This document shows positions 8,982 to 29,510 of a stretch of DNA of 31,806 nt, in pieces. The stretch's first letter is position 1, and every line of letters begins with the position of its first letter. Origin of the DNA: a virus (lineage: Duplodnaviria; Caudoviricetes); IMG/VR virus record IMGVR_UViG_3300032225_001850, positions 1 to 31,806 of that record; one strand, written 5' to 3'. The notes beneath the pieces are model-generated. The model was not told where the DNA came from. It saw only the letters and a list, made by a program, of their open reading frames with translations, and searched no databases. Made by a program: the position numbers and the translations under genes.

Positions 8982-8987
8982 TATTTA
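8982..8987 (-). promoter_or_regulatory. TAAATA late-type promoter (leaderless)
   Basis: agcTAAATAatgctATG. Confidence 0.7.
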
Positions 8988-9005
8988 GCTTGGACTCTAA
9001 AAGGC

Positions 9006-9034
9006 TTGCGAACTAGACGGATTTAGTGTATACT
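9006..9034 (+). promoter_or_regulatory. sigma70-type promoter
   Basis: TTGCGA-17 nt-TATACT, 6 nt before the ATG at 9041. Confidence 0.75.
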
Positions 9035-9040
9035 AGTTTT

Positions 9041-9268
9041 ATGAAATCACTTGCTATGCTTTTGCTGTTGGTTGGTTGTGCCACCCAGACTGTGCCAGTA
9101 GCCACGCCAAACTTGGCCGGGATTGAACCTGACTGTCGTTATGCTTCATATCAAATGGGCCTGTTAGAAAAAGGTCTGATGACCGCTTCTGCTGATTCAG
9201 ACAACTATAGACAGATCAAAAACAAGATATGGAGTTTGCGAAGCACCTGTAGTGCTTACAGGTCATAA
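9041..9268 (+). CDS. Small lipoprotein (moron-like)
   Basis: MKSLAMLLLLVG-C signal peptide with lipobox. Has its own promoter and terminator and lies opposite to the structural operon. Confidence 0.8.
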   Translation: MKSLAMLLLLVGCATQTVPVATPNLAGIEPDCRYASYQMGLLEKGLMTASADSDNYRQIKNKIWSLRSTCSAYRS

Positions 9269-9292
9269 AAAAGCCCACCGAAGTGGGCTTTT
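9267..9292. terminator. Bidirectional rho-independent terminator
   Basis: AAAAAAGCCCAC-CGAA-GTGGGCTTTT between the convergent capsid and lipoprotein genes. Confidence 0.9.
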
Positions 9293-9312
9293 CTAATTCA
9301 ATACTAATAAAA

Positions 9313-10515
9313 TTAGTATGTGTTAGCGGCTCGTTTAACCAAGGCACTAGGACGCGGTGCTGAAGGTGAGTTAGAACCATTAGATGTAGTGATTTGATTT
9401 AACATCGCTACGCCTGCTGGGTTACGCACCACAAGGCAACCTTCCATAATGAATTGATCTAAACTAGCGTCAGCATTACTGAACACTTCCTGGTTAGGAC
9501 CTAAATCACGCAGGCTTCCCCACTGAAGGACCTCCTCATTTAAGAAGTAGATACTGTTGCTTACACCACTTTGATCCATGATCCAACTATCAAAAATTTC
9601 ATATGTGTAGTTGAAATCGCCTTCATAAGTCTGAATGGTATCGCCACGCTCGACATTACGACGGTTGATGTTGGTATTACTTGTGCCAATCAAGTCACTG
9701 ATGTTTGTGCGGAGACTTGTTGGAGCAACCATTGTGCGAACTTTTGCGTTGTAACGCTGTTCAGCTGTAGTTACCAATTGCTTGTAGGTAATTGGACTGA
9801 ACGCTTGGTTCGTAAATGTGCCTGTGTAGAACTGTGTTCCATTGGCATTGATATACAAGTTACCAGCACTTTCTGTTGCCACATCGCTTGATGTGCTGTT
9901 GGTCCAGGTGCTGATGTTAGCAACATTACCACTTGTTGTGTTGAAACTTTGTGTGCCAGCATAACTGCTCAATGAACCCATACGACGACCAGATTTACTT
10001 GGTGTTGTATTTGCCCAATATGTGCCACTGGCACCTTGAGGAGTTGTGTCGCCTGTTCCAGCTTGGCCAGCATACTGTGTGCCAACTTGGTCGTTACGAA
10101 CCAATTGCTGTTCCACATCAAACATCATTTCAATCAGCTGTTTTACCTCCTGATAACTTTGCGGGTCCCCTCCAGACTGCATAACAGCACGAGCTGTGCC
10201 AGTAGCGGCGATCGTGGTTGTGAAAATCTGTGTGTAGTTAGCCAAGTTGTAACGCTGATTGTTTTCTGCATTGTCACTGTTGACAGCGGCACCTTCTTGC
10301 CAGGCTTGGATAGCAGGCAAACGATAGATGTCGTTGGTCCACAAAGGAGCTGTAGAATTAACTTTACGCTTCTTTGTCATACACATGTTCAAAACAGGTG
10401 TGTCATCTTTAACACGATTGGATACATCTAAGTCTAAGTCTTTGACAACGATATCTGTGGAATAACCATTCGTATTCAGACCGTTACCAATTGACGATGT
10501 TGATATTGTGCTCAT
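9313..10515 (-). CDS. Major capsid protein (DUF5309/SU10-like, HK97 fold)
   Basis: 400 aa with DTP.L.M, W..D, EG, NYTQIF, RRMG.L and YEGDF motifs. Follows the scaffold and ends at a strong terminator. Confidence 0.9.
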   Translation of the reverse strand: MSTISTSSIGNGLNTNGYSTDIVVKDLDLDVSNRVKDDTPVLNMCMTKKRKVNSTAPLWTNDIYRLPAIQAWQEGAAVNSDNAENNQRYNLANYTQIFTTTIAATGTARAVMQSGGDPQSYQEVKQLIEMMFDVEQQLVRNDQVGTQYAGQAGTGDTTPQGASGTYWANTTPSKSGRRMGSLSSYAGTQSFNTTSGNVANISTWTNSTSSDVATESAGNLYINANGTQFYTGTFTNQAFSPITYKQLVTTAEQRYNAKVRTMVAPTSLRTNISDLIGTSNTNINRRNVERGDTIQTYEGDFNYTYEIFDSWIMDQSGVSNSIYFLNEEVLQWGSLRDLGPNQEVFSNADASLDQFIMEGCLVVRNPAGVAMLNQITTSNGSNSPSAPRPSALVKRAANTY

Positions 10516-10541
10516 TATATTTTCCTTAAATTAAGCTATTT

Positions 10542-11732
10542 TCAACGACCTGTTCTGGTCGCCCTAAGTTTACTTAGTTGGGCCATTAACAGATTGTCTG
10601 CGGCTTTTTTGTCGCCGCCCTTGGCTTGTTCACGAAGTCGACTAATATTGTCTTCTTGGCCGCGGGTATTAGCACTGGATGGATTGCCGCTACGCTTGGT
10701 CAGGGCGGCAATACTGTTGCCAGCCTGTTTGGTAGTGGGTCTATCTCTATATTTGAGGCCGTCTCTGATCAAACCAAACAAGGTTTCATCTGCAGAGATT
10801 AGGTCAATATTCTTAATACCAGGAACTAGTTCGTCCGAACTTTGTTTCCAAGTTTTACCAAGCTTCTCACGCAATTCATTGAACACATATTCGTTTTTCA
10901 ACTCTTTATCTGTGAATGACTTGCGGTTCTTTTCTAAAACTTGTTGCACTTGTTGGCTACGCACCCGTTTGAATTCATCAATGTTGGGTTTGAGTGTATT
11001 AATCGTTTCACTTTGTTGTTGTATGTAACGCTCATTCTGTTGCATACTGGCTTGGATACGGGCCTTTTGGGCTGGATCCGTAGTTTGTGCCAATTGTTGT
11101 TGAAAAGTTGATTGATACCCTTGAGTCTTGATAATCTCATCGTAGGCTCGTTGTAGCTGTGGTTGGACTGTAAATTCCATTGCCAGTGTAAGACCTTCTT
11201 GTTGTGCTCGTTGTTCTTTGAGATATTCATCAAACTCGGCACGCTCGATCTTTAACTGTCTTGCTTCTTCGTGTATCGCACCACCTTGTCCTAGGATACT
11301 GGCCGCTCTCTTGGCATCAATGATCATTTCTTTACCGTTGCGAACAAACTTAAACTTGGCGTTAGGGTTTGTGTCTGCAAATTCAATAAAATCAATTAAG
11401 TCATCTTGCGTAGATTCCGTATCTGGTGATTCGCTTACCGGTTCTTCTGCAGATTCAGCAGATTCTTCCTGGGGCTCCTCGGATTCGTAGAGGTCAATAT
11501 TCGCGTCGTTAGGCGATGTGATTTTTGGTTCGCTGGGATCCACAGGGGATTCAACATTTGCCTCAGTTGATTCACCTGTTGTAGCGGATTCAGAGGCACG
11601 CATTAGGTTACGCTGTGTGGTTTCCCGCATAGCGGCCATCTTGGCAAAGATACCTTGGTCTGATTCTGGTGCTACCGTTGTATCATTGGCCGTGCTCTCG
11701 GGAGCATTAGGCTTGATAAGTTGTTCTGACAT
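10542..11732 (-). CDS. Capsid scaffolding protein
   Basis: Acidic disordered N-terminus, Q/E-rich coiled coil and basic C-terminus, immediately upstream of the capsid gene. Confidence 0.8.
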   Translation of the reverse strand: MSEQLIKPNAPESTANDTTVAPESDQGIFAKMAAMRETTQRNLMRASESATTGESTEANVESPVDPSEPKITSPNDANIDLYESEEPQEESAESAEEPVSESPDTESTQDDLIDFIEFADTNPNAKFKFVRNGKEMIIDAKRAASILGQGGAIHEEARQLKIERAEFDEYLKEQRAQQEGLTLAMEFTVQPQLQRAYDEIIKTQGYQSTFQQQLAQTTDPAQKARIQASMQQNERYIQQQSETINTLKPNIDEFKRVRSQQVQQVLEKNRKSFTDKELKNEYVFNELREKLGKTWKQSSDELVPGIKNIDLISADETLFGLIRDGLKYRDRPTTKQAGNSIAALTKRSGNPSSANTRGQEDNISRLREQAKGGDKKAADNLLMAQLSKLRATRTGR

Positions 11733-12090
11733 TTAAGTCTTCCTTTTGTGTTGAGACGGGCCCAGCTTGCTGGGTTACCACCTTGTTTTTCATATGCACT
11801 GCCCTATGCAATGACTGAATGAAACCTTCTATGCCGGCCAATTGATTGCTCAATGCGATACGGTGGTTGTTGTCCTGTTCCGTATGGCCGGTTATGCCTG
11901 TTAATGCATCTGCTAGTTCAAATTTGAACTGGTGCACAAACAAGGCCAAATCTCTATTTTTCAATAATGCTTCTGCATTACTGCCTTGTGCTTTGACCGA
12001 GTCCAATTGACTGGGTCTCATGGTCTTTATACTATTCAAAGTCACAGTCAAACGACTGTTGAATGCGTCTATGGCTTCGTTGCTAATCAT
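11707..12090 (-). CDS. Hypothetical helical protein between portal and scaffold
   Basis: 127 aa, TAATG overlap with the portal stop. Confidence 0.8.
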   Translation of the reverse strand: MISNEAIDAFNSRLTVTLNSIKTMRPSQLDSVKAQGSNAEALLKNRDLALFVHQFKFELADALTGITGHTEQDNNHRIALSNQLAGIEGFIQSLHRAVHMKNKVVTQQAGPVSTQKEDLNVRTTYQA

Positions 12091-14363
12091 TAGTTGTAAA
12101 CTTTCGGATCACCTTGTGCCTGGCTCATATAGTCCAGTTGTTTTTCTGCACTTGTGCCATCAATGTTACTTAATACTTCTTGAGTCTTGGCATCATTTAA
12201 CTTGGCACTACTGATATCTTTTTGTTCTGTTGGGCTTGGTTGACGGCTCTTGGCGGCTTCCTGTGCCTGTTGGATCATCTGTAGCACTTCTTCGTCTGTA
12301 GGCAAGTAACTGTTGCAATCTTTGATACCTAGTGTGTATAGAATCTCTGCATAGGGCTTTTTGACCTTGGTAAACATTTCTGGAGTCATTGTGCCAGCGG
12401 CAACCATGGTTTGTGTGGTTTGATACAGGCCAGTTTGTGCTTGAATAATAGCCTGTTGGCGTGCCACACGGTTTTCTTCGCTCAACATACCTAACGCCAA
12501 TTCAATATGGATCTGTTTACGCTCACAGAAGTTCATATCATCCCAAGCCTGGTAGTCCAGGAACACAGGTTTCTTTTCTGGATGAAACATCTGTGCCAAT
12601 TTACGCACACCATAGTCATCGCCATACTGTATCAAGGTTCTCCATACCAACCAAATGGCTTCTTTGAGTCCATCTGCTGAGTTACGCACACAGTTATCCT
12701 GTATGATTTGATTTGGGCCCAAGGCCATTGCTAATTTTTCGCCTGAATTGCCTGCACTCATTACTTCTGGATTGAATACATCGCCTGGCTGTGTCATACC
12801 AATAAGTGCCTGTGTGTCCTGTTGCATACGAGTCATTGCGTTGTCAATAAAAGCCAAATTACCACTGGGTCCTGGCATTGAATACACATCAGTTGCCGGA
12901 TCAAACTTGGCATCCAAAACAAATATGGCACATTCACCATCTTGCAACATTTCAAAATCGACCTTGTCAGGTTTGACACCCAAGCGAGGTGTAGCACTTT
13001 GAAGTCCCAACATGATTTCTGCACGACTTGCGGCTGTGCAATACTCTTGTATGGATATCACTGATTCGGCCACACTCATACCGTAGAAATTGCCTGGTAG
13101 GGGTTTTGGACACATATTGGCCACAGGAACAAATTCTACTTCTTTGGCACTGAGGATGTAACTACCTGAGAATACTATTTCGCACAGTTCCATTTCACCA
13201 TCACCATCAATGTCATACTTGTCCCAAACTGTTAGAATAGTAACTTGACGCGAATCAGGATCTGCACCTACACCCGAATTTATAGGCATACCTTGCACAG
13301 GCACACTGTCTCTGGCATGGATGGCCAGGTTGTTGAGCACTGAGCCTGCTTGGTAAGCACCGTTTTGATTGTATTCAGCAAATTCACGGAACTCCTCCAA
13401 ATGATCATTGAGATCTGGATACAAGTGAACAGCTTCTTGGATACTCATGGGATCATAGAATCCGCAAAACACTTGGTCTTTCATTTCTTGCACAGTGGGA
13501 TCACAGATCCAATAGTGTTGTGCAATGTTACGGAATTTGATTTTCAAACTGTAGCCAGTCAGTTTATATTTGGCACTATAAATTGTGTTACGATTGATAC
13601 TGGCTGTGATTTCATCTTCAGCTGATTCCAATTCCATATTGCCAGGCTCTTCATCTTCGGCGTCAGGATTGTTTAATTTGGCTTCAGCATTGCTAAGGCG
13701 TGTGCGTAGGTTTTCTTCGTGTTGTGCTCCTGGCAAGCCCTGTGCAAATTCAACAGTTTCTCGGGCCACTTGTTCCAGGTCCACACGCACACGACGACGG
13801 CTTTGGCGTAAGGGTGTAAGTCCACCATCTATGGCCTGTTGTTCAAAGGCCTTGAGTTGGTCCGCTGTGCCTTGTGTTTCTACATAACGCACAATCTGTT
13901 CACGCTGTGGTAACACCATAAGCATACCGTTCTTGTGCATAGCGGCATCCATGATCCAACGCTGTAGAATAAAATGCGGATCGTTTTCTTCGTTTATAAT
14001 CCTACTAACCATTTCAGTGGACTGACGAGCGGCCACATCATCTGCGTCAGTGTCTTCCACAAATTCAAAATTAATTTCACCATTAGGAGCAAGTCCTTTA
14101 TTGATAACTGCGGTCACATAGTCTACCGCAGGTTTGACCACAGGGTGTATGTAATCAATGCCATTTACCGGAGCTGTAGAGTCTACCACTGGCAACATCA
14201 AATAATGATAATCGCTGGCTCTGTTTACAGCATTTTTGGTTCCTAGATAACGCAGGAAGCTGGCACATTTGGTATCCAACTGACCTTTCAGTTTAACAAA
14301 CCTTGCCATTTGAGCATTGGTTGTGTTTAGTTGGCTAATGACCCGATTGCGAATATTCAACAT
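12090..14363 (-). CDS. Portal protein (P22/SU10-like)
   Basis: 757 aa after TerL, with YDIDGDGEMEL, P.P..FYGMSVAE and a Q-rich C-terminal helix. Confidence 0.9.
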   Translation of the reverse strand: MLNIRNRVISQLNTTNAQMARFVKLKGQLDTKCASFLRYLGTKNAVNRASDYHYLMLPVVDSTAPVNGIDYIHPVVKPAVDYVTAVINKGLAPNGEINFEFVEDTDADDVAARQSTEMVSRIINEENDPHFILQRWIMDAAMHKNGMLMVLPQREQIVRYVETQGTADQLKAFEQQAIDGGLTPLRQSRRRVRVDLEQVARETVEFAQGLPGAQHEENLRTRLSNAEAKLNNPDAEDEEPGNMELESAEDEITASINRNTIYSAKYKLTGYSLKIKFRNIAQHYWICDPTVQEMKDQVFCGFYDPMSIQEAVHLYPDLNDHLEEFREFAEYNQNGAYQAGSVLNNLAIHARDSVPVQGMPINSGVGADPDSRQVTILTVWDKYDIDGDGEMELCEIVFSGSYILSAKEVEFVPVANMCPKPLPGNFYGMSVAESVISIQEYCTAASRAEIMLGLQSATPRLGVKPDKVDFEMLQDGECAIFVLDAKFDPATDVYSMPGPSGNLAFIDNAMTRMQQDTQALIGMTQPGDVFNPEVMSAGNSGEKLAMALGPNQIIQDNCVRNSADGLKEAIWLVWRTLIQYGDDYGVRKLAQMFHPEKKPVFLDYQAWDDMNFCERKQIHIELALGMLSEENRVARQQAIIQAQTGLYQTTQTMVAAGTMTPEMFTKVKKPYAEILYTLGIKDCNSYLPTDEEVLQMIQQAQEAAKSRQPSPTEQKDISSAKLNDAKTQEVLSNIDGTSAEKQLDYMSQAQGDPKVYN

Positions 14364-14387
14364 GTATAAGAGACCTTTATGATAGTG

Positions 14388-14393
14388 TATTTA
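14388..14393 (-). promoter_or_regulatory. TAAATA late-type promoter for the portal-capsid operon
   Basis: tacTAAATAcac in the 44-nt TerL-portal gap, followed by an AAAGG ribosome-binding site. Confidence 0.7.
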
Positions 14394-14407
14394 GTAAGGC
14401 CGGATGA

Positions 14408-16015
14408 TCAGCTGGGATTGTAAGTCTTTTTCCACTCGCTTGATTTGGGTTCAGGACGCACAATGCGATCACGATAACTGGCTAGTCGTTGTTGTGGTGT
14501 GCGGTTGTCCCATGGTTCTGCAATGTCATTTAGGCAACCCAACAAGGCGTAGCGGGCCGAGTCTATGGTATCATCAGGATCACTGAAACGACCCTGTGGA
14601 TCCACATAGTAATTTTGTGCTTCGCGTAGGAAGTCCACACAGTTTTCGTTTATGTGTAGGGTGCCGGCTTCCAGCATTTGCCGCATGACATTGATGCCAT
14701 AGGCCTTGTGATTGGTAGTCCTGCCTTGATCATCTGGTGGATTCATTATGGGCTTGGGCCACACATTCAATTCATACTGTTCGAATAATTCTCTTATGCT
14801 GAGAGCACTCATGGTATAGCGGCCCGCTGTGCCACCATCAGGCGGTAGCACAATGGGTGTGCCAAACACTTCAGGACGCATGAGATGACTGATGTAATTG
14901 GTAGGATTGGCTTCTTCTATACCCGACACACAGATCTGACGGTGTAACCAAGCTTCACGCTCTTGCGGATTCCAATACATCAAGCTAATCACAGTTCTGT
15001 CATTTACCAAGCCCAGGTCAAGTGCTATGATCCTGTAGATGTTGTTCATGCTACGGAAGTCGTAATCGCCAGTCCTGTAGGTAGGCCAAGAGCGTATTTG
15101 AAACACAGCTCCTTGACCCATGACGGGCTTGCCAGCGATGCGGGCCTCTCTTTCGTGCGGCAAGTAATCGCGTTCTAGTTGAGCTCTTGTGCTTTTGAGT
15201 AGAAACGGTTCGCCCCAAGGATCGTATTCTGGAACATCGTCCCAAGCGACTCTTATGAAATCGTAACCCTCTTCTCTGTTCCAGAATTTTGATACTAATC
15301 CGTTGAGTCCTTTGAGTGGTGTAAAACTACAAAGGATCTGTCCTTGTGTAGTAGCAGTCCGCGTAACAATTTCACTGAAAAAGTCATCTGGTGGTTGTTC
15401 GTCAAAAACGGCCAGGTTGAGTTTGAATCCTTGCATTTGCCTAACCTCTTGAGTATAGTTAGCAAAAATAAGGTAGCTCTTACCGCCAGACTTGTGACGG
15501 ATCTCAACGCCCATACAATTAGAGCCATCGTTACGCATAGTGTCCAGAATAATGCAATCACGGGGGATAGCACCAGTTCCAATAGCATCGCGGATCTTGA
15601 CATCTTGTGTTCCTAACAGTTCATTCTGTAGCACCATTGCGACCTGGCTCCAACCTTCGCCAGCCACCATGGCTGTAATGGGCTTATCAAACCTATGACC
15701 ACGCCACCAATCAGGATACTGACCAGTAAGATGGCAAGCTGTTTCATAACAGGTTGATACCGTTTTGCCAATACGATTCGCCGCAAGTATTCCTCTGCGA
15801 TCAGAATGAGCCGTTTCAAAAAATCTCCTTTGGTGTTCAAATGGTCTGAAGTATTTAAGTTGATTATACTGCATGTCATCACTAATGGCAATGGCCATGT
15901 CCTGGAACTTGAGTCTGGTATCAGAATCAACGCAGGCAAGATCCGCTGGAGTAAGACCGTGTTGGTCCAGGCTCCAACGCACCGCACGACGCATAAGCAC
16001 GCCTGAATCCAGCAT
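14408..16015 (-). CDS. terL: Terminase large subunit
   Basis: Walker A AANRIGKT, Walker B LAVFDEQP, coupling motif SFTPLKG, nuclease motifs ALDLG and DDTIDSARY. Confidence 0.95.
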   Translation of the reverse strand: MLDSGVLMRRAVRWSLDQHGLTPADLACVDSDTRLKFQDMAIAISDDMQYNQLKYFRPFEHQRRFFETAHSDRRGILAANRIGKTVSTCYETACHLTGQYPDWWRGHRFDKPITAMVAGEGWSQVAMVLQNELLGTQDVKIRDAIGTGAIPRDCIILDTMRNDGSNCMGVEIRHKSGGKSYLIFANYTQEVRQMQGFKLNLAVFDEQPPDDFFSEIVTRTATTQGQILCSFTPLKGLNGLVSKFWNREEGYDFIRVAWDDVPEYDPWGEPFLLKSTRAQLERDYLPHEREARIAGKPVMGQGAVFQIRSWPTYRTGDYDFRSMNNIYRIIALDLGLVNDRTVISLMYWNPQEREAWLHRQICVSGIEEANPTNYISHLMRPEVFGTPIVLPPDGGTAGRYTMSALSIRELFEQYELNVWPKPIMNPPDDQGRTTNHKAYGINVMRQMLEAGTLHINENCVDFLREAQNYYVDPQGRFSDPDDTIDSARYALLGCLNDIAEPWDNRTPQQRLASYRDRIVRPEPKSSEWKKTYNPS

Positions 16016-16296
16016 TAGTCCTGCCTTAGGTCACAATGTATATCATAAATGGCATTGAGAGCACGGGCCAGATAGCATATTTCACCGGCTGACAATTCCA
16101 CAGCCGAATCCTTGCGTAGACCATGTTGCAGGCGTTCTGCAATGAGTCGCATTATGTGCTCGCACTGCCCAGGGAACTTTTCTTGAAAGGCCTCGCGATA
16201 CACTGCGTTGACCTTTTGCATTATTTTAGTTTCATCAGCACGACGAGCTTCAATGGCTTGATTGATTACACCATCACGGGCCGCAGGATTATTCAC
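16015..16296 (-). CDS. Hypothetical protein (93 aa) coupled to terL
   Basis: TAATG overlap with terL, and overlaps the upstream gene end. Confidence 0.75.
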   Translation of the reverse strand: MNNPAARDGVINQAIEARRADETKIMQKVNAVYREAFQEKFPGQCEHIMRLIAERLQHGLRKDSAVELSAGEICYLARALNAIYDIHCDLRQD

Positions 16297-17071
16297 TGGC
16301 TGTGTCCCATGGATTGTTCAGGCCTGCACCTTCACTGACAGCATAGTCACGATCAATCCAAACAGCCCATTGATCACTCTTGTTCACAGGCATTTTCTGC
16401 ATGATGCTTTTGAGATTACGACCAATTGGAGTCAAGGTGCCGTCCTTGCGAACTACCACTTGCTCGCCTGTGCGGGGGTCAACCCATTTGAGGATTTCAG
16501 GACGCATACGACCAAACTTGTCAATCTTTTCACCGTGCGGACGGATGTCTACTGGACCTGTGATCTCATAGCTGATCATACCTTTTTGATACTTGCGGAA
16601 CACACAGTCTACCTTGCGGCCTGTGTTGAGATACTCTGGATCACTGTGCGGAATAGTTCTGCACACAAAGGCATTTTGCAATTGATCTGCCGCAGGCAAG
16701 CTGGGATCACGGGCTGGCACAGGGCGTAGTTCTTCTTGCGGAACCATTTCAGTGCGATCCACATAAGGATTGTCACCGCCCAGGAATTCTGGACCGACGG
16801 TGCGGCCATTAAGAGCATCCATTGCGATCTGATACTTTAACTTGTTGGCACGGCCTTTGAGATTCAACACAATGCCCTTTTGGTCATACACAAAGCGTTC
16901 TAGTTCTTTGGCAGTAGGGAAGTCGGTCATGAGACCTTCCAGATCAAATTCTACTTGATACTGTTCTACTGCGGGTTGGACCAATGGTGGTGTCACCACA
17001 GGTTCCTGTGCTGAAAAGGCAGGTTCATCTGCCCATGGGTTTGATTCGGGGGTTGAGGTTTTCTTAACCAT
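16289..17071 (-). CDS. Hypothetical protein (260 aa)
   Basis: Long ORF with an AAGGA ribosome-binding site and TAAATA at 17141-17146. Confidence 0.85.
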   Translation of the reverse strand: MVKKTSTPESNPWADEPAFSAQEPVVTPPLVQPAVEQYQVEFDLEGLMTDFPTAKELERFVYDQKGIVLNLKGRANKLKYQIAMDALNGRTVGPEFLGGDNPYVDRTEMVPQEELRPVPARDPSLPAADQLQNAFVCRTIPHSDPEYLNTGRKVDCVFRKYQKGMISYEITGPVDIRPHGEKIDKFGRMRPEILKWVDPRTGEQVVVRKDGTLTPIGRNLKSIMQKMPVNKSDQWAVWIDRDYAVSEGAGLNNPWDTASE

Positions 17072-17140
17072 TTGAGTTTTTCCTTTGCTTGTCTACTCTA
17101 TACTTCAAACTCCTAACAGGAGTAACTGCTTGTATACTGC

Positions 17141-17146
17141 TATTTA
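17141..17146 (-). promoter_or_regulatory. TAAATA late-type promoter
   Basis: cacTAAATAgca. The leader contains an ACTCCT-GTT-AGGAGT hairpin. Confidence 0.65.
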
Positions 17147-17485: not shown

Positions 17486-17486
17486 A

Positions 17487-18190: not shown

Positions 18191-18192
18191 TC

Positions 18193-18621: not shown

Positions 18622-18981
18622 TTATTTAGCTTTGTCAGACAAACTGGCCAGTTTAGCTATGGCTTCTTGGAACACCGCGGCCTTGGCCTCAGCGTCGGAC
18701 TCGGTGGTCACAGTGGTCACTTCTGAGCGGTCCGCCACCAGCTTGCCCAGCAAGATCTTTTCATAATCTCTTACGCCGGCATGGTCCGCACGGTTGATGG
18801 CACTGGCATAACTGATGGCCACCTGTTCAGCAAAGGTTCGGCCTGTGTGGTGTTCAACCTGTTCAAGCAGATCTTCAAGAGTCAGCTTGGTGGTCGAACC
18901 CTTGGGACGGCCCGCACCGGGTCTGGCACCGCCTCGGGTGGGTGCTTTGACTCGATAACGATTGGATTCAGCTTGTTTCAT
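18622..18981 (-). CDS. Probable terminase small subunit
   Basis: N-terminal RGGARPGAGRPKGS motif typical of many TerS proteins, helical body, first gene of the packaging region. Confidence 0.65.
   Translation of the reverse strand: MKQAESNRYRVKAPTRGGARPGAGRPKGSTTKLTLEDLLEQVEHHTGRTFAEQVAISYASAINRADHAGVRDYEKILLGKLVADRSEVTTVTTESDAEAKAAVFQEAIAKLASLSDKAK
18623..18628 (-). promoter_or_regulatory. TAAATA late-type promoter (leaderless)
   Basis: agcTAAATAataatATG. Confidence 0.7.
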
Positions 18982-18987
18982 ATTAGA

Positions 18988-18993
18988 TATTTA
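18988..18993 (-). promoter_or_regulatory. TAAATA late-type promoter (leaderless)
   Basis: tcaTAAATAtctaatATG. Confidence 0.7.
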
Positions 18994-19139: not shown

Positions 19140-19240
19140 TGTTTTCTCCAGATTGGATAACTATTTAACTATGCCACCTGTAAAAAAGAATTATCGCAAA
19201 TTTCGTAGCACCGTTTGGTGGTATCGCAAAGGCTCCTGGG

Positions 19241-19637: not shown

Positions 19638-19666
19638 CTGCTATTCCTTTTTGTTTAACAGTTTAT

Positions 19667-19695
19667 AGTATACACTTACGACGCCAACAAGTCAA
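19667..19695 (-). promoter_or_regulatory. sigma70-type early promoter 1
   Basis: TTGACT-17-TATACT. Confidence 0.85.
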
Positions 19696-19713
19696 TTGTT
19701 TTTGCCAAGTTCA

Positions 19714-19914
19714 TTATAGATCCTCAAATTCCGCATCGCGATCTATTTCTTCACCATCTGGGCCATAGATATTGGCATCTTCAAGATAGTCGTAGTCCGA
19801 AATGGGCTGTAGGGCTTGATGGATTTGTTTGCTGGCTAGTTCTTCTGCCCAGTAAGCTGATTCAGCTTCTACTTGAATTTCTACTGCAACATAACTTCTA
19901 ACTGTGTATTTCAT
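19714..19914 (-). CDS. Small acidic early protein (VEAES..AEE motif, DpnD/PcfM-like)
   Basis: GGAGG ribosome-binding site and ATGA overlap. Confidence 0.75.
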   Translation of the reverse strand: MKYTVRSYVAVEIQVEAESAYWAEELASKQIHQALQPISDYDYLEDANIYGPDGEEIDRDAEFEDL

Positions 19915-20129
19915 TCTACTGCCTCCACTGGGTTGTCATTTTGATCATAAAATTCTGGCACATCATCACTCTTGATACGGTTTGTGTTGTAATCCAACCA
20001 GTGTTGATCCAGTTCATAGTTGGATTCTTGCTCCCATAACAGCTCGCGAGCTTGTTCAGCTGTGTCTGCTTCTATCACAAACTGTTGCTTGATCACAAAG
20101 GTTTTCCAACCAGTAAATGTATGTTTCAT
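19911..20129 (-). CDS. Small acidic early protein (IEADTAEQA motif), probable paralogue of the next gene
   Basis: GGAGG ribosome-binding site and ATGA overlap. Confidence 0.75.
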   Translation of the reverse strand: MKHTFTGWKTFVIKQQFVIEADTAEQARELLWEQESNYELDQHWLDYNTNRIKSDDVPEFYDQNDNPVEAVE

Positions 20130-20335
20130 TTGACTGCCTCCAATTTTAGGGTTCGTAATTCTGTGCGAAGCTTGTCCAAGATAGGTTGTATCTGCTCAGC
20201 CAACTCAGGTATATCACGCTGGGCCGCACGGCACTGCTGGATATGTAATTTCTTAAGTTCTATGGGCGACATCAATTGTATATGATTGATCACTTGATCC
20301 CATTCTTTACGGCTAAAACGATCTCCACGCTTCAT
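20126..20335 (-). CDS. Early hypothetical protein (69 aa)
   Basis: AGGAGG ribosome-binding site and ATGA overlap. Confidence 0.75.
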   Translation of the reverse strand: MKRGDRFSRKEWDQVINHIQLMSPIELKKLHIQQCRAAQRDIPELAEQIQPILDKLRTELRTLKLEAVK

Positions 20336-20625
20336 GCGGCTACCTCCTGGCTGGCCTGATAATAAACAGCATCTACTACAGGACCCTGGGTCAGCACGGT
20401 AATCACCGCGTGAGCACCATTAGCACCTGGTTCGTCTGCTACGATAAACACCACTCGTTCTTCTGGGCAATACCAGCTCTGAACCACCTGGCCTAGTCTA
20501 TGGTCCCAGTAGGTGCGGTGATGGCGGAATGCACCTTTAATATTCATAATCTGTCCTGTTCGAGGTCTAATGCCTAGTCTAGCTTGCACACGATCTAGGG
20601 CATGGTTAGTAAATGCTATGTTCAT
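20332..20625 (-). CDS. Small protein with a T.HA..R motif (DUF4258/RelE-BrnT-like fold candidate)
   Basis: N-terminal FTNHALDRVQAR and C-terminal AVITVLT; AAGGAG ribosome-binding site. Confidence 0.65.
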   Translation of the reverse strand: MNIAFTNHALDRVQARLGIRPRTGQIMNIKGAFRHHRTYWDHRLGQVVQSWYCPEERVVFIVADEPGANGAHAVITVLTQGPVVDAVYYQASQEVAA

Positions 20626-20655
20626 ATGGTGGCTCCTTTGCTATACTGTAATGCT

Positions 20656-20684
20656 AGTATAACGCAGGAGTCATTTCGGGTCAA
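20656..20684 (-). promoter_or_regulatory. sigma70-type early promoter 2
   Basis: TTGACC-17-TATACT. Confidence 0.85.
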
Positions 20685-20707
20685 TCTGGGCCGATCAAGT
20701 GTGGCTT

Positions 20708-21301
20708 TTACGCCACACCTTCAGTGCCTTGTGCTTGTCTAGCCACAGCATCCTGGGCGATACGCAGGAATTCTGCGGCCACTCGTGTGCTGTCGGTCTG
20801 GATCATTTCCCCGGAGGTCATGACCATATAGACCATGTGTCCTGCGTGATTACCCGCACTCCAGCTGGAATCTACTGCTATGATCCTGAAGCGTTCGCCC
20901 TGCTGGGTAGTCTCTACTTCTGCTGGACGGCCTGTGACGCGAACACACTGGGCACCCTTGTTGATTTCTCCAGCCATTTCTGCCAGCTGGGCAGGTGTAA
21001 ACCTAAAAGTGGCATAGTAGCCTGACTTCTGCTGGGGAGCCAGATGATCGCGGCCTTCTTGGTCCATGATGTCCACAGTGGCATTAACTTCTACATAGGT
21101 CTGGCCTGCCATGTCGTAGCCTCTACAGCCCATGGACTTGCTGATTTCTGCCACCAGTTCGGTGACTGAAAACCAGTAATGGTTCAGACCTTCGGCACTG
21201 TTAAGGCCAGCATCTGGCTTGTAGCCCTTTAAGTCACTGGCTACTACCTTGGCTTTCTTGGATTTCTTTACCACTCTACCATTTTCTACGCGATAAGTCA
21301 T
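20708..21301 (-). CDS. Early hypothetical protein (197 aa)
   Basis: Own promoter and GAAAGGT ribosome-binding site. Confidence 0.85.
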   Translation of the reverse strand: MTYRVENGRVVKKSKKAKVVASDLKGYKPDAGLNSAEGLNHYWFSVTELVAEISKSMGCRGYDMAGQTYVEVNATVDIMDQEGRDHLAPQQKSGYYATFRFTPAQLAEMAGEINKGAQCVRVTGRPAEVETTQQGERFRIIAVDSSWSAGNHAGHMVYMVMTSGEMIQTDSTRVAAEFLRIAQDAVARQAQGTEGVA

Positions 21302-21337
21302 CTTGTGCTACCTTTCTTTGCTTGTTTAACAGTCTAT

Positions 21338-21366
21338 AGTATACTAAATGGGCCAATTTGTGTCAA
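21338..21366 (-). promoter_or_regulatory. sigma70-type early promoter 3
   Basis: TTGACA-17-TATACT. Confidence 0.9.
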
Positions 21367-21392
21367 TTGGCCCGTGTTGCGTTTACGCCACA

Positions 21393-21611
21393 CTATTCTA
21401 CTGCCTCCAAATAGTCTTTGGCAACAGTCGTGATACGATGTGTTTTGAACTCATCATCAGATAAGTTTTTCACAGCCCAGGCTTGTGCTTCTAGGATGGT
21501 TGGGAAAAAGTAAGTGCCTTCTTGAAATGCATCCAAACAGTCCAGGCATTCGTTATGCTCGTTATACCAGGTTAAGTTGTAACAGTCTTTGAACTTTTTC
21601 AATGTATTCAT
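21393..21611 (-). CDS. Early hypothetical protein (72 aa, MNTLKKFKDC...)
   Basis: Start moved to 21611, after the GAAAGGT ribosome-binding site and downstream of promoter 4. Confidence 0.75.
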   Translation of the reverse strand: MNTLKKFKDCYNLTWYNEHNECLDCLDAFQEGTYFFPTILEAQAWAVKNLSDDEFKTHRITTVAKDYLEAVE

Positions 21612-21645
21612 TTTGCTACCTTTCTCGACTTGTTTAAGTTTTATT

Positions 21646-21674
21646 AGTATAGCAAATGGGGCATTTTGTGTCAA
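21646..21674 (-). promoter_or_regulatory. sigma70-type early promoter 4
   Basis: TTGACA-17-TATACT, with a spacer very similar to promoter 3. Confidence 0.9.
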
Positions 21675-21715
21675 ACTCTGGCTGTTGTTTTTTCACAACA
21701 CTTAAATACTTGTAT

Positions 21716-21997: not shown

Positions 21998-22009
21998 CTA
22001 AATACTTGC

Positions 22010-22178: not shown

Positions 22179-22213
22179 CTTTAGGTTATTTTGTTTGCGT
22201 GGTAAATACTTGT

Positions 22214-22624
22214 GGAGATGTATCATACAGAAAGGTTGGCACGCCGAATACTAATTGTGCTGGAGAATCTTGTGGAGCATACTGAGGCCTCGCACAGCAT
22301 CCAATTCGCCGGTATCTGTCCGGTGGCTTTTACGCACTACTGAAGAGTAGCCTGAAAGAATAGTCCTACTAGTTGAGAACCCTGACGAATGGATGACGAT
22401 TTGCGTGATCGGAATGGTTAGAAGATTACTATTGCTATGAGAACAAACAGCCACTGAGATGTTCTCTTAAAAGTCACGGCAGGTCTGGGTAAGCGTTGAG
22501 CCCAAGCAATACTTCGAATACTTGATAAACACCTGCTGGTAACGACAGAGCAACTCACTCGTCAAAGATATGCCACTACTTCGGATAGTGGCACTCTGAT
22601 CAATCTATCTGTCAAATGATCTCT
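22214..22624 (+). ncRNA. Candidate large structured RNA (~410 nt), family not recognised
   Basis: TAAATA at 22203-22208. The 5' and 3' ends pair (22227-22238 with 22601-22612), and there are several internal helices and a C-UUCG-G loop. No credible ORF. Confidence 0.6.
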
Positions 22625-22705
22625 AAGTAATAAAAAGAACGCATTGAGCTACGAAGTTGCTCAATAGATCTCGTTAGAGATCTCTAAATGTGCTAATATA
22701 ATGCT

Positions 22706-22882: not shown

Positions 22883-22938
22883 ATTGCCGTAAATAAATCT
22901 CTGTGGTAAATAAAAGCATAGATTAGAAAGGACATGCA

Positions 22939-24273: not shown

Positions 24274-24274
24274 T

Positions 24275-24529
24275 ATGATACAAGCAACAGGAACAAGACT
24301 GATAATAACCAAACAAGAACAAGACCTAACCACCAGCACAGGCATTGTGTTGAAACACACAGATGAATATCCTCGTGCTAGGGTTGCCAGTGTAGGACCT
24401 CGAATTGATATTGATGTGGTAGTAGGACAAGAGATCCTAGTTGATTGGTCGCGTGTGGGCCGTTTTGAACACGACAAACAGGAATACTTTGTGGTGGATC
24501 AAAGCAATGTGATGGGTGCGTTTGATTAA
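24275..24529 (+). CDS. groES: GroES-like co-chaperonin
   Basis: 84 aa with a TTSTGIVL mobile loop, VASVGP, V.VGQ and a terminal NVMG motif. Confidence 0.85.
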   Translation: MIQATGTRLIITKQEQDLTTSTGIVLKHTDEYPRARVASVGPRIDIDVVVGQEILVDWSRVGRFEHDKQEYFVVDQSNVMGAFD

Positions 24530-24534
24530 ATACT

Positions 24535-24599
24535 AGGTCAACGGCACACGAGGGTCAAGCCCTGAGCTGATAATTTTTGCCGTTTCTCGTCAGCGACCT
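24535..24599 (+). ncRNA. Candidate compact pseudoknotted RNA
   Basis: Follows TAAATA (24527-24532). Pairings AGGTC/GACCT, AACGGCA/TGCCGTT, AGGG/CCCT and GCTGA/TCAGC. Confidence 0.4.
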
Positions 24600-24630
24600 T
24601 ATTCCAAAGAGGTTTTTGCAGGGTCAAGCC

Positions 24631-24897
24631 TCACTTGACAGCGTAATGTATCACTATGCCCAACAGGGTCACTATAATGAATCCTGACCACTTGAGATAA
24701 GTGGCCTGGGTTGAAGTGGTAATACGATTTACTGATGTTTTGATTTCTGCTACCAATTGAGTCAGTTCGGCCAGGCGGCCATCAACTTCATCAAATTTGG
24801 CAATTAACTGCCCATAGCGTTCAGCACATAGATCCACATGCAGGTCCAGACTGGCCTTTTCAGCAGGTATATTGCTGATCACAGACAATTCGCTCAT
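24631..24897 (-). CDS. Coiled-coil protein with C-terminal transmembrane helix (possible holin-like)
   Basis: SLDLHVDLCAERY, a coiled coil and WSGFIIVTLLGIVIHY; ATGA overlap with dps. Confidence 0.7.
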   Translation of the reverse strand: MSELSVISNIPAEKASLDLHVDLCAERYGQLIAKFDEVDGRLAELTQLVAEIKTSVNRITTSTQATYLKWSGFIIVTLLGIVIHYAVK

Positions 24898-25325
24898 TCC
24901 AGTGTGACTCGCAACATCCAAAGACTCTTTTCAATGTCCAAGGCTTGATCTTGTGCATAGTTGGCTATTTCGTCCAGACCTTCTGCGTCGGCTGTGGCAA
25001 TAAGATCTTTGAAGTCACCCAATAGGCCTTCTAAATCTTCTTCAACTTGTGACAACAAGGAATCGGCTGTGCCTTCAATAGGACCTTTGGGCATGAAGCT
25101 CATATCAACTACTTCTGAAATATCGCATGGCATGTATTCATCCAAACTGCGTAGCAATTCACCAATGCGGTCAATTTGATCTTGACGGCGTGTGTAGATG
25201 CCTTCTAGCAGTTTATGGTCACTGCGAAAATTTCTCCCCGTAATATTTACATGAGCACAATGCGACCTGAAGTAGGCCACAAAATTGTCTCTAAATAATT
25301 GTGTTAGTTTTTCTGTTGTGTTCAT
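24894..25325 (-). CDS. dps: Dps/ferritin-like protein
   Basis: H.NITG.NF...H..L and D.IGE ferroxidase-type motifs, C-terminal EK.LWML. Confidence 0.85.
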   Translation of the reverse strand: MNTTEKLTQLFRDNFVAYFRSHCAHVNITGRNFRSDHKLLEGIYTRRQDQIDRIGELLRSLDEYMPCDISEVVDMSFMPKGPIEGTADSLLSQVEEDLEGLLGDFKDLIATADAEGLDEIANYAQDQALDIEKSLWMLRVTLE

Positions 25326-26311
25326 ATGGTTCCTGGGGCAACGGGTTGTAGGGCTTTCTGTGCGGCTTTGCGTTTAATTAGTGCATCTATGTCGCGTTGG
25401 CTACCATTCTGCAACACAGCGGCTTCCTGATCTGGCGTAACAGGAGCACCGTAAGTGGGTGTCATATTACGGAATGCTTTTTGTGCGTTTTGTCCTTGAC
25501 CTTCAGCTAGTCGTTGACCCAACTGCGAATCTTGTGCGTATTGTGCGGCATCATAGGCATTGAGTGCAAGTCCAGCTGGTCCAGCCACTTTGCCTACAGC
25601 ACGAGCAACAGGCCCCATTACCTTACCAATTTGTGCAAAACGACCTGGCACCTTGCCTGCATACTGTTCTGCGGCCGCGGCCAATCCGGGATTGGCCTTT
25701 AGTGCGGCACGACCTTCTTCTGATGCCAACCAAGCATTAACGCCGTTGTTGCCACCAGTTTTATACAGTTCACTTAACTTTGGTGCTAGATCAGGAGCGG
25801 CCTTTTGCATGGATCTAAAATCAGGAACGCTTTCTGGATATGGTTTACCTGTTACAGGACTCACAATCAAATTGCTTTGGCTTACACCTTTACTGACATT
25901 AGACGCTGTTTGTTTGGCGGCACCATACATATCTTTGATTGTTTCAAATCCTTTGGCTGTGCCAAACACAGGAGGCATACCACCGTGCATTAGCACAGCA
26001 TCAGCAAGGCCACCAACTGGATTGGCCTTGTAGCCTTGTATTACACCTTTACCTACTTCCATAAATGGTGACACTGCTTGTTTGACAGCCGTTGAGCTAA
26101 TACCAGTTGGACCTGGCACAGCAAATTGCGGAGCAACAGGGCCTTGCGGTTCTGGTGTAGAGCTAATTGGTGTTTCGGTTTTGGCCAAAAACTCCACTGG
26201 ATCAAATTTGGATTCAGCGGCCTTGGGTTGTTCTACAGGTGCGGCCGCAGGTGCGGCTTCCTTTTTGGGCTCTGTGGTTTCAGCTAGAAATTCTGCTGGA
26301 TCAAAAGCCAT
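25322..26311 (-). CDS. Putative internal virion/ejection protein (329 aa)
   Basis: Rich in A/G/P with a duplicated FDP.EFLA motif, coupled to the upstream ejection gene. Confidence 0.7.
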   Translation of the reverse strand: MAFDPAEFLAETTEPKKEAAPAAAPVEQPKAAESKFDPVEFLAKTETPISSTPEPQGPVAPQFAVPGPTGISSTAVKQAVSPFMEVGKGVIQGYKANPVGGLADAVLMHGGMPPVFGTAKGFETIKDMYGAAKQTASNVSKGVSQSNLIVSPVTGKPYPESVPDFRSMQKAAPDLAPKLSELYKTGGNNGVNAWLASEEGRAALKANPGLAAAAEQYAGKVPGRFAQIGKVMGPVARAVGKVAGPAGLALNAYDAAQYAQDSQLGQRLAEGQGQNAQKAFRNMTPTYGAPVTPDQEAAVLQNGSQRDIDALIKRKAAQKALQPVAPGTI

Positions 26312-28707
26312 TATTCACCAATTCCTAATTTTTTCAACACATCTGGTGCCAGCGGATCATTTGGATGAGCCTTGACCCATTCATATGCTTCTTTGTTTTT
26401 CTTGACATCGTCGCCCAACATATACTTGACTTCGGGTTCTTTACCTGCAAGTATGCGTTGACGGTTGACACCTTTCTTGACTGTGTCCTCAAGTATCTTG
26501 GCATTACGGCGGAATTCTTCTTCGCTGATACCAGGATCACTTAGAGCGGCACGGGCCTGTGTGGCCGCTTGTCCTTCTTTGTCACTGATGGCACCTGCAC
26601 CACGCAACTGTGCAAACGCATCTAGGAACTCTTGTCCCATCAATTGCTTGTATTTGCTCTGCCAATCTCTTGCGGCTGTGCCAGGCAATTGTAGTATGCC
26701 AGTGATGCCAGGAACACCCACATTGGTTTCAAAACCTTTGTGTTTGACTACATCAGTAATGGTTGTAAGGATGTTGTCAGCCTGTGCTTGATACTGTGGC
26801 AAGGCCAATTTGGTTTTGGCATTGCCTTCGGCAATGTCATTGGCTTCTTTTTGCCAAGTGGCCAAGCGTGCCTTGTAAGCACTGTATGGTTCATTTGGTC
26901 CTTGCACTGGAGCACCACCTGCGGTAGGTTGTGTGCTGAGTGTAGGAGTAGCTCCTGGGGCTGTTTGTGTTTGTGCAACTGGTGCGGCAGGATTAACTGG
27001 ACCGCCCTGTGCTGGTGCTGTGGCAACACCAGGTTGAACTGCACCTGGAGCAACTGCACCACCTGTGGGAGCAACTGCTCCGCCCTGTGTTGGTGTGGCT
27101 ACAGCGGCACCAGCTCTACCTGGCAATGGTGCTTGTTGCACACCTGTTTCAGCGGCTTGTTTACCTTGTTGTCCAGCACCTGATCTAGCATAGGCCGCGG
27201 CGGCCTGTTGTTCAATTGGACCAGCTGTAGACATCTTGACCAATTTGTTTTGTTCTTCTGGACTTGCGGTGCGTCCTGTATTGGCTTCTACAAAACGGCC
27301 ACCATATGGAGTCTTGACATAACTGAAGCGAGCACCTGATGGATTCATTGGGTCATAATATACTTCAGCTGTGGTTTCTGTTTTGCTACTGCCAACACCA
27401 CTGGCGGCAAATTTGGCCAATGCATCACTGGATAATTTTGTGCCTTTTTCGTCGTAACCATCTATGGCCAAACCATTACCATCATAATTGATAACGGCAC
27501 GCTCACCACCAGGTCCTACTGTAGGAACCCACTTGTTGTCAGCTCCTAATTTTTGTTGTTCTTGTTTGGCCAAATCATTTAGACCAAAGCGTTGGAATAG
27601 ATAGGCCTTGATGTAACTGCCTTCATCTCCTTGTTTTTTGATCAATCTAGCTAGATCATTTGTGTTGCCTGATTGCACAGCTTTGTCTATATCTGTGGTA
27701 GCTTTGATTGCGGCACGCTCAGAAGTCAATTGTTTATAGTGTTGATCAGCGGCGGCTTTACGAATGTATTCTGGAGCTGTTGTATCTCTACTTAATTCAT
27801 ACATTGCGGCTGGATCTCGTTGTGCAGATAGGAATTTGTCTTCGTAGTTTGGATTTGCGGCAGGAGCGGCCAAACTTGTTTTTTGCATGGTTGGCTGTCC
27901 GGGAGCTACACTGCCCATACGGCTTTCAGCAATTTGACGCAATTTGGCTTCACCGCCATTGGCGGCCGCGGCTTCTGGACTTAGATATCCTGAATCTAAA
28001 TATTTCTTAGCACCACTGGCACCCAACAGGTGACTTAATCTTAAATTACTTTCGTTTGGTTCAACACCTTGTGCTTTAAGTTGATTGGCGTAGACACCGC
28101 GTAGAGTTTCATTGGCCTGACCTTGTTCTTCTGGAGTTAAACTTGTAATAGGACGATTGGCAAAAGCAGGATTAGCCGCTTGTATATCTCGGTATGCAGG
28201 AGCGGTAATACCATAAGTGCCATAAGCACTACTCTTGGCAGGATTGTGATAACCAATGTTGGGATTAGCACCAGACTCTTGTCCAGCGATGTATTGATTA
28301 TAGCCCGTGGGCTGTGCCGGAGCTGAAACAGTTTGAGCCACAGGTGGTGCCACAGGAGCAACAGGTTGGTGTGCTACCGCAGGGCCAGCTGAATTGGCCA
28401 GGTTCATATATTGATTTGGTTGTGTTTGTGGCACAGGTGCGGCGGCAGGTTTTGGTGCAACTGGAGCAGGGATCTGCGTAGTTACATTGTGTTCTTGACT
28501 GCCATCTGGATAATGATTAACTGTTTGCGTTTTGATAGGTGTTGCGGCTTCTTTGGCCAAACGCTTTTTCTTTTCTTCTTCAGTTTCTGCACCAGGGAAC
28601 GCATCATTAAAACGACCATTTACATAACCCATAGGATCTGTAAAAGGCTGTGTGGCCTGATCCATACGATTCTGAAAATAAGTTCCTACTAAGTCTTCAA
28701 ATGCCAT
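26311..28707 (-). CDS. Ejection/internal virion protein with lytic transglycosylase-like domain
   Basis: IAGQESG, SSAYGTYGI and SHLLGASGA motifs; helical C-terminus with LRGAGAISDKE. Confidence 0.75.
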   Translation of the reverse strand: MAFEDLVGTYFQNRMDQATQPFTDPMGYVNGRFNDAFPGAETEEEKKKRLAKEAATPIKTQTVNHYPDGSQEHNVTTQIPAPVAPKPAAAPVPQTQPNQYMNLANSAGPAVAHQPVAPVAPPVAQTVSAPAQPTGYNQYIAGQESGANPNIGYHNPAKSSAYGTYGITAPAYRDIQAANPAFANRPITSLTPEEQGQANETLRGVYANQLKAQGVEPNESNLRLSHLLGASGAKKYLDSGYLSPEAAAANGGEAKLRQIAESRMGSVAPGQPTMQKTSLAAPAANPNYEDKFLSAQRDPAAMYELSRDTTAPEYIRKAAADQHYKQLTSERAAIKATTDIDKAVQSGNTNDLARLIKKQGDEGSYIKAYLFQRFGLNDLAKQEQQKLGADNKWVPTVGPGGERAVINYDGNGLAIDGYDEKGTKLSSDALAKFAASGVGSSKTETTAEVYYDPMNPSGARFSYVKTPYGGRFVEANTGRTASPEEQNKLVKMSTAGPIEQQAAAAYARSGAGQQGKQAAETGVQQAPLPGRAGAAVATPTQGGAVAPTGGAVAPGAVQPGVATAPAQGGPVNPAAPVAQTQTAPGATPTLSTQPTAGGAPVQGPNEPYSAYKARLATWQKEANDIAEGNAKTKLALPQYQAQADNILTTITDVVKHKGFETNVGVPGITGILQLPGTAARDWQSKYKQLMGQEFLDAFAQLRGAGAISDKEGQAATQARAALSDPGISEEEFRRNAKILEDTVKKGVNRQRILAGKEPEVKYMLGDDVKKNKEAYEWVKAHPNDPLAPDVLKKLGIGE

Positions 28708-28715
28708 AATAGTCC

Positions 28716-29450
28716 TTAGATCTTAATACCAAATTGATTGCTATTTTGGTTTTGTGTAGTAGTGGATCCTTGTGTGCCAGCAAAGTTTGGACTATAACTT
28801 GCACTTGGTGTTCCAAACAGCACACTTGCGTATTGATTATACAATTGCTGTGGTGCCATTGCGGCTGTGAGTTGATTTGCACCAGCGGCTTGTGCACCTG
28901 ATAATCCGGTTTGACCAAGTCCTGCCAAGGTGCTTCCTGCTTGATACTGTTGTGCGGCCATATCTCTTAGGACGCCTGCGGCGGCCGCTTGTTGTTGTGC
29001 CTGTGCGGCACCAGCGGTTTGCCTTTGTGCTAGAGCACTACGAGCACTACCCAATTGTCCTGCACCACCAAACGCGGCCTGTTGACCAGCGATGTTTTGT
29101 GCATATTGTGCCTGTGCAGGCATCAAGGCCGCATTCATTTGGGCCTTTTGATATTCAGGACTTGACAAATTTTGGAGTGCATTGATACCACTAGTCAAGG
29201 CTGATTCACCTGTGCTACCCAACACATTCTGTGCTTGATTGGCAGTGCCAGCATAATTTTGTGCGGCATTGGTTACACCTGGAGCAGATTGATTGTATAA
29301 ATTGGTAGCACCGCCTACCGCTGTGGCATAGCTTGGAGCAATCTGACTGGTAAACAGGCCAGTCTGTGCCGCAATCATTGCGTTTTGTTGTGGGCTTAAT
29401 GATGGTAAGGTTGTGCTTGTTCCACCGCCGCTTGATTTTCCGAAACTCAT
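28716..29450 (-). CDS. Ejection (pilot) protein, P22 gp7-like
   Basis: MSFGKSSGGGTST N-terminus, rich in A/Q/G, GGAGQLGSARS motif; TAAATA at 29470-29475. Confidence 0.7.
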   Translation of the reverse strand: MSFGKSSGGGTSTTLPSLSPQQNAMIAAQTGLFTSQIAPSYATAVGGATNLYNQSAPGVTNAAQNYAGTANQAQNVLGSTGESALTSGINALQNLSSPEYQKAQMNAALMPAQAQYAQNIAGQQAAFGGAGQLGSARSALAQRQTAGAAQAQQQAAAAGVLRDMAAQQYQAGSTLAGLGQTGLSGAQAAGANQLTAAMAPQQLYNQYASVLFGTPSASYSPNFAGTQGSTTTQNQNSNQFGIKI

Positions 29451-29510
29451 TATCTGACTCCTATTGTAGTATTTAGTTGTTGGGTATTATAGCCGGGCTT
29501 ATACATTAGA

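Follow-up and report, generated by a model that had tools for sequence, protein, structure and literature searches.

Conserved TAAATA sites in a freshwater podovirus family suggest reliance on the late sigma factor of a co-infecting jumbo phage

The stretch of DNA analyzed here, referred to as the window, comprises 31,806 nucleotides (nt; positions 1 to 31,806) of IMG/VR record IMGVR_UViG_3300032225_001850, a linear 31.8-kb virus record with a completeness estimate of 89%. It belongs to a freshwater podovirus of approximately 36 kb with virion genes of its own, and the feature of interest is the hexamer TAAATA, found ahead of these genes. Scanning of the 43 open reading frames (ORFs) of the window against PHROGs and Pfam revealed an SU10-type capsid and portal, a terminase, GroES, Dps, and a QSregVF_b protein. 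The same scan gave no match for a sigma factor, RNA or DNA polymerase, primase, helicase, integrase, repressor, or endolysin, in agreement with an earlier interpretation made from the letters alone (the sequence-only reading), which had recognized none of these apart from endolysin, on which it was silent. Synteny with the closed relative G001 assigns the segment absent from the window to tail genes, as that reading had supposed. The encapsidation set of the window consists of capsid, portal, and terminase genes identified by match and tail genes placed by synteny, and the closed relatives carry a full virion gene set.

All 13 TAAATA sites listed in the sequence-only reading were recovered at their coordinates and on their strands (Table 1). 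Their proposed position just upstream of genes or structured segments was borne out as a positional enrichment, since 7 of the 20 copies in the window precede a curated start in the sense orientation by no more than 40 nt (binomial p 6e-7); the sites at 17141, 18623, and 24527 fit this description less well, as they coincide with stop codons or a gene end, and the last has no gene behind it on its strand. The total of 20 copies was at chance level (19.7 ± 4.4 in shuffled sequences), and a genome-wide excess was rejected. Among hexamers upstream of starts, TAAATA ranked third after two Shine-Dalgarno words, while the 14 remaining hexamers with its base composition scored 0–3 compared to 7 for TAAATA. 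When automatic ORF calls were used, the upstream count was 4/20 (p 1.6e-3).

The terminase of the window matched 593 related stretches in IMG/VR, and 25 relatives of 27–40 kb from that database were analyzed, one of them covered to base 40,000 of 40,471. Upstream enrichment of TAAATA could be observed in all 25 (p 3.6e-4 to 3e-16), at orthologous virion genes. The outgroup phage MW202484, which has virion genes in common with the family and is annotated with SSB, ERF, RusA, Cro, and a chitinase-type lysin, had 0 of its 17 copies of the motif upstream of a start. In the pooled family loci, which are overlapping halves with some copies counted twice, 208 out of 489 TAAATA copies had an upstream position, compared to 6–12% for four hexamers of the same composition; the control sets gave 2/56 (GTDB prophage loci) and 15/321 (unrelated viral loci). 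An artefact of AT-rich intergenic DNA was rejected, because neither the same-composition hexamers nor the control sets show the enrichment, and a stop-codon artefact was rejected family-wide, because TAA served as the stop of the upstream gene at only 18 of the 208 upstream sites. The placement of TAAATA is a real and conserved feature of these genomes.

The distance from TAAATA to ATG was most often 5 nt (60 sites), and values of 17–27 nt formed a second mode. A -35-like word preceded only 11 of 225 family sites, which agrees with the absence of a -35 box described in the sequence-only reading. Such spacing together with a lone -10 element is the anatomy expected of a promoter that would give both leaderless and leadered mRNAs. 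The 5-nt spacing fits a transcription start approximately 6 nt downstream, as in a gp55-read late promoter, and the arrangement of such promoters, a TAAATA core near -10 with no -35 box ahead of virion genes, is the one found here.

A reader for this motif was searched for within the family. The gp55 profile phrog_234 matched 0/25 small genomes, closed ones included, compared to 8 of 9 large contigs; Sigma70_r2 matched 0/22 small genomes, and tblastn with two jumbo gp55 proteins as queries gave no match in any small genome. The gp55-type sigma carried by T4-like and jumbo phages is hence a trait that the window family was not found to share. No early gene was common to the whole family, as the early genes vary from genome to genome, and the core proteins without assigned function are either themselves preceded by TAAATA or also present in the motif-free outgroup MW202484. 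One of these, the 119-aa (amino acid) protein, has weak terminase-small-subunit matches in relatives. The 260-aa core protein was considered as an activator and rejected: its predicted fold had no clear match (best Z 4.2; one homologue in BFVD), a result that is no proof of a new fold, and the protein also occurs in the outgroup.

The sequence-only reading had proposed a T4-like or jumbo helper encoding gp55, and large phages that encode gp55 and use the same motif could be found. Two fully read jumbo phages use TAAATA, with counts of 73 compared to 3.2 expected and 82 compared to 6.7 expected. A gene of approximately 90 aa present in 11 of the 26 family genomes had cultured homologues only in phages of 284–490 kb (15/15 records; PA5oct group, Atu_ph07, Phosso, SCTP-2), and its IMG/VR homologues were located on contigs of 290–543 kb, with the jumbo late sigma phrog_12791 present in 5/5. 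The class of helper looks like the PA5oct/Atu_ph07/CBB-type jumbo group. The part of the earlier proposal that concerns coupling through gp33 and the gp45 clamp is not to be assumed. Accessory genes of four relatives (G004, G011, G024, G053) were 36–53% identical to genes of the two fully read jumbos (phrog_3704 protein, AAA ATPase, superoxide dismutase).

The region at 22230–22690 contains a non-coding element that is better conserved than the neighboring DNA (84% over 731 nt in G007). A blastn search of the element against cultured phages gave no match. An nhmmer profile of six small-phage copies led to a 349-kb phage with a homologous stretch (E 1.9e-22) and a gp55-type sigma of its own, and the element is present in phages of 349 and 356 kb. 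An exact 19-mer of the element matched 120 stretches; among 20 element-bearing contigs tested, phrog_12791 was found in 12 of the 13 longer than 50 kb and in 0/7 small ones. In the large phage G040, gp55, a pair of genes resembling gp47 and gp46 in sequence, and a phrog_447 gene precede the element. Another, G036 (C1), carries two copies, one after the gp55 region (74430–74860) and one among late genes (292990–293490), and the latter copy is nearer the small-phage type. A role as the jumbo replication origin was rejected, as no clean GC-skew switch occurs at the element in G036 or G040.

Covariation analysis of 25 diverse copies revealed that 95.8% of cells pair, compared to 74.3% after shuffling, and that 22 of 25 pairs have changes on both sides, compared to 12.9 shuffled (0/500); slid controls gave 26–51%. 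These statistics lean to the favorable side, because the structure was drawn from the same alignment and the copies were picked by a shared word. Folding of single sequences of the element gave z values of -1.06 and -0.55, neither of them significant. Against the Rfam motif Polynucleobacter-1 (RF01718), jumbo copies scored 69.8–89.1 bits and the relative G003 scored 36.1 against a cut-off of 37, while the window copy gave no RF01718 match; through these homologues, the 5' part of the element appears to be distant kin of Polynucleobacter-1. In the window and in G022, one hairpin of the element is swapped for a different, longer one.

The element also occurs in a second lineage with unrelated virion genes, consisting of six siphovirus-like phages of 24–37 kb (G038, G055–G059; L615–L616, L621–L630). 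The members scanned carry an HK97 capsid, a 414-aa terminase, and a distal tail protein. The six phages carry no gp55-type sigma, and their TAAATA enrichment is weaker (p 5e-5 to 0.047).

Table 1. Coordinates of the TAAATA sites, the non-coding element, and other annotated features of the window
Feature	Position	Strand	Remarks
TAAATA	8982..8987	-	5 nt before ATG of conserved 194-aa gene following the capsid gene; predicted leaderless late promoter; within 60 nt in 22/27 cluster members
TAAATA	14388..14393	-	before portal gene; 23/28 cluster members
TAAATA	17141..17146	-	about 70 nt before 260-aa gene; TAA doubles as stop of preceding gene; within 60 nt in 12/27 cluster members
TAAATA	18623..18628	-	5 nt before 48-aa basic gene; overlaps final codons of 119-aa gene; 19/21 cluster members
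TAAATA	18988..18993	-	6 nt before 119-aa gene; 20/25 cluster members
TAAATA	19162..19167	-	boundary of early genes and virion block; precedes short ORF with Shine-Dalgarno site
TAAATA	21703..21708	+	7 nt before 94-aa gene; 5 nt in relative G001
TAAATA	21999..22004	+	precedes non-coding DNA ending in hairpin with T-run
TAAATA	22203..22208	+	directly before structured non-coding element
TAAATA, two copies	22890..22912	+	before 131-aa gene
TAAATA	24527..24532	+	TAA is the GroES stop codon; no plus-strand gene behind; doubtful promoter
TAAATA	29470..29475	-	before 244-aa gene heading predicted injected-protein block; 22/26 cluster members
Conserved non-coding element, about 470 nt	22230..22690	+	predicted RNA with covarying stems; also in jumbo phages encoding gp55 and in a second, unrelated lineage of small phages
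Early block	19667..21674	-	four sigma-70 promoters, small genome-specific genes; co-oriented with virion genes
197-aa early protein	20708..21301	-	predicted SSB-like OB-fold, largely beta and unlike a sigma fold; pLDDT 87; best E 3e-3, weak
Major capsid protein, SU10 type	9313..10515	-	PF17236, E 1.5e-32
Portal, SU10 type	12090..14363	-	PF23899, E 4e-48
Terminase large subunit	14408..16015	-	PHROGs/Pfam
260-aa core protein	16289..17071	-	upstream of terminase; predicted small helical N-domain and beta domain
Long repetitive tail-fibre-like protein	3001..7389	-	resembles a jumbo phage protein over part of its length, in low-complexity sequence
GNAT-like core protein, 194 aa	23689..24273	+	function not assigned
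GroES-like co-chaperonin	24275..24529	+	PHROGs/Pfam
Dps/ferritin-like protein	24894..25325	-	core gene within TAAATA clade

The early genes were said to use canonical TTGACN-17-TATACT promoters, and four such sigma-70 promoters were located on the minus strand at 21674, 21366, 20684, and 19695. Several relatives (G006, G008, G021) contain no strict sigma-70 match at all. A 64-nt direct repeat (78%; 21303–21366 and 21611–21674) spans two promoter/leader units of the window, and a 23-nt part of it recurs at 19651.

The claim that replication genes are lacking held only in part. No key replication gene could be recognized in the window or in four of the five relatives classed as having direct terminal repeats, which have neither PrimPol nor the protein of approximately 360 aa described below; however, the window contains an SSB-like fold, and clustering placed PrimPol and a helicase in 6/25 relatives. 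In these six (G008, G009, G013, G017, G019, G021), PrimPol adjoins one of three interchangeable helicases (DUF5906, VapE, DUF3987). Four more relatives encode the approximately 360-aa protein (L178:5507-6613:-, also G002, G014, and G024), which has invariant YDI and LEHDG motifs and no match in Pfam or PDB. We take these motifs to recall family A polymerases, and the protein is possibly a small family A-like primase-polymerase. In 24 near-complete family genomes, the element (6 genomes) never occurred together with PrimPol or the 360-aa gene (10 genomes), while 8 had neither (Fisher p 0.024, calculated on genomes that are related and not independent). With PrimPol and helicase in some relatives and a detectable sigma factor in none, the constant lack is that of the late sigma rather than of replication. 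The accessory proteins were assessed by scanning 140 of 193 selected representatives, those below 70 aa, above 640 aa, or of low complexity having been left out beforehand. Neither the window nor these scanned proteins gave an integrase match, and a pattern search of GTDB gave no close integrated relative. The lysin of the outgroup MW202484, used as a query, matched only in the two fully read jumbos.

Several further features of the virion region were noted. A 667-aa tail-region protein (669–2672, minus strand) contains DUF285 repeats and is a candidate receptor-binding protein, and a virion-block protein (29511–31451, minus strand) contains many tandem repeats of approximately 13 aa of the type G[FY][TA]NAAE[YF]. 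Between the capsid gene and the 194-aa gene following it, an antisense 75-aa ORF (9041–9268, plus strand) has a lipoprotein-like N-terminus and was not found in the 25 relatives. A GroES search in IMG/VR gave no match.

Helper-dependent late transcription is the best reading of these data, though an unproven one. It draws on the motif and its retention across the family, on the failure to detect any sigma, and on the element and genes common to the family and gp55-encoding jumbos. We consider it probable, with considerable room for doubt, that expression of the virion genes of the window phage depends on a late sigma of gp55 type supplied by a jumbo phage infecting the same cell. The host sigma-70 polymerase would first read the few small early genes; once the late sigma of the jumbo phage was made, the host polymerase would start at the TAAATA boxes, with many of the resulting mRNAs leaderless. 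Replication, for which the window has no polymerase, primase, or helicase, and lysis, for which it has no endolysin, would draw on enzymes of the helper or the host. More speculatively, the shared RNA element may act in replication or regulation coupled to the helper. The window phage would then likely multiply well only in cells also infected by a giant phage. A broader proposal can be offered tentatively and with more doubt than belief: these phages may belong to a widespread guild of 'bacterial virophages' with polyphyletic origins, made up of small freshwater phages with two or more unrelated virion types that form their own particles, are obligate parasites of jumbo late transcription, and in some lineages swapped replication genes for a jumbo-captured RNA element that couples them to helper replication.

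A number of observations weigh against dependence on a helper. The four sigma-70 promoters aim toward the virion genes, and between 19695 and 16900 no terminator-like site was found on the minus strand, so that read-through could supply the late genes. One relative encodes an M15 endolysin, some have the primase and helicase mentioned above, and the window itself has the SSB-like gene and does not have the approximately 90-aa gene shared with jumbos. The family is also common, and strict co-infection would hardly account for this unless helpers can persist within cells. Such findings would suit a phage that exploits jumbos only when the occasion arises, completing its cycle alone through read-through and host replication enzymes, with TAAATA acting merely as a boost during a jumbo takeover. 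We regard this as unlikely, given the relatives devoid of any strict sigma-70 match, the restriction of a recognizable endolysin to the single relative, and the retention of at least five internal TAAATA sites at fixed genes across divergent genomes.

It is less likely again that the phage is autonomous and that an unrecognized factor of its own lets the host polymerase read TAAATA, the likeness to jumbos being convergence or an old capture. Many small ORFs are unannotated, and the core 119-aa and GNAT-like proteins have no assigned function; folds were predicted for two unknown proteins of the window, and others of up to 130 aa could hide an activator. However, such a factor must be common to all 26 genomes, whose early genes differ, and the distribution of the core unknowns described above does not favor them; the two folded candidates are not sigma-like, and the unrelated second lineage would require a factor of its own. 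A sigma of the host bacterium that reads TAAATA in small and jumbo phages alike, with no mutual dependence, seems improbable to us. A common host accounts for the shared genes and RNA element, which in themselves indicate a shared host or gene pool and not dependence. On the other hand, the early promoters are textbook sigma-70, the jumbos bring their own gp55-type gene, and gp55 profiles matched none of 14 control bacterial genomes.

If reliance on the jumbo sigma is correct, common lake podoviruses that are counted as ordinary phages would be parasites of jumbo phages, tied to them through the late sigma as virophages are to giant viruses. Such parasitism could help explain why the group stays uncultured, and TAAATA without gp55 would serve as a simple genomic signature for finding similar parasites. 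The orphan Rfam motif Polynucleobacter-1 is now placed in the gp55-gp47-gp46 region of jumbo phages and belongs to a longer, mobile element that passes from phage to phage; the described motif (PMC2864571) measures 141 nt, compared to approximately 470 nt conserved here.

Literature searches of limited coverage returned no report of a bacteriophage that parasitizes a late sigma, and nothing directly on the window phage group. Late promoters read by gp55 are described for T4 (PMC7892883) and for the jumbo phage CBB (PMC5259590) as a lone TAAATA core with no -35 box before structural genes. In the window, a purine followed by C or A stands before the core where those promoters have TA, and the genome lacks gp55. 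In CBB, a gp55-like sigma and the late motif ATAAATA are present, but no homologue of gp33 or gp45 was detected (PMC5259590), which is the reason for not assuming clamp coupling in the proposed helper. PA5oct is reported to depend on the host polymerase (PMC7318152).

The sequence-only reading had presented the phage as the reverse of the P4, PICI (phage-inducible chromosomal island), and PLE (PICI-like element) satellites. The contrast holds in so far as those elements, like cf-PICI (capsid-forming PICI) and I55, an integrating satellite that exploits a jumbo phage (PMC12772148), integrate and borrow virion parts or packaging, whereas the window phage has no integrase and encodes its capsid, portal, terminase, and tail. 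They resemble it in exploiting a helper phage, and PrimPol-helicase modules like theirs occur in some window relatives (PMC12772148, PMC10690885). The logic itself was already known from the Streptomyces satellite phages MiniFlayer and MulchRoom, which carry their own encapsidation machinery, have no key replication genes or primases, and depend on a virulent phage as helper; of the two, MiniFlayer resembles podoviruses and is apparently non-integrating (PMC10690885). The window phage shares with them the possession of encapsidation genes. Their dependence was shown in culture. The window phage differs in its complete set of podovirus virion genes and in the jumbo phage proposed as its helper. 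The word 'promoter' is absent from PMC10690885, and use of a helper late sigma is accordingly not described there for either satellite. Late promoters shared with a helper are, for their part, known from the virophages Sputnik, Mavirus, and Guarani, which form their own virion, have the late promoter of the helper preceding their genes, and are thought to use the transcription machinery of the giant virus; some virophages retain their own replication enzymes (PMC6723459). With their eukaryotic hosts, unrelated virions, and cytoplasmic factories, virophages stand in analogy rather than homology to the window phage.

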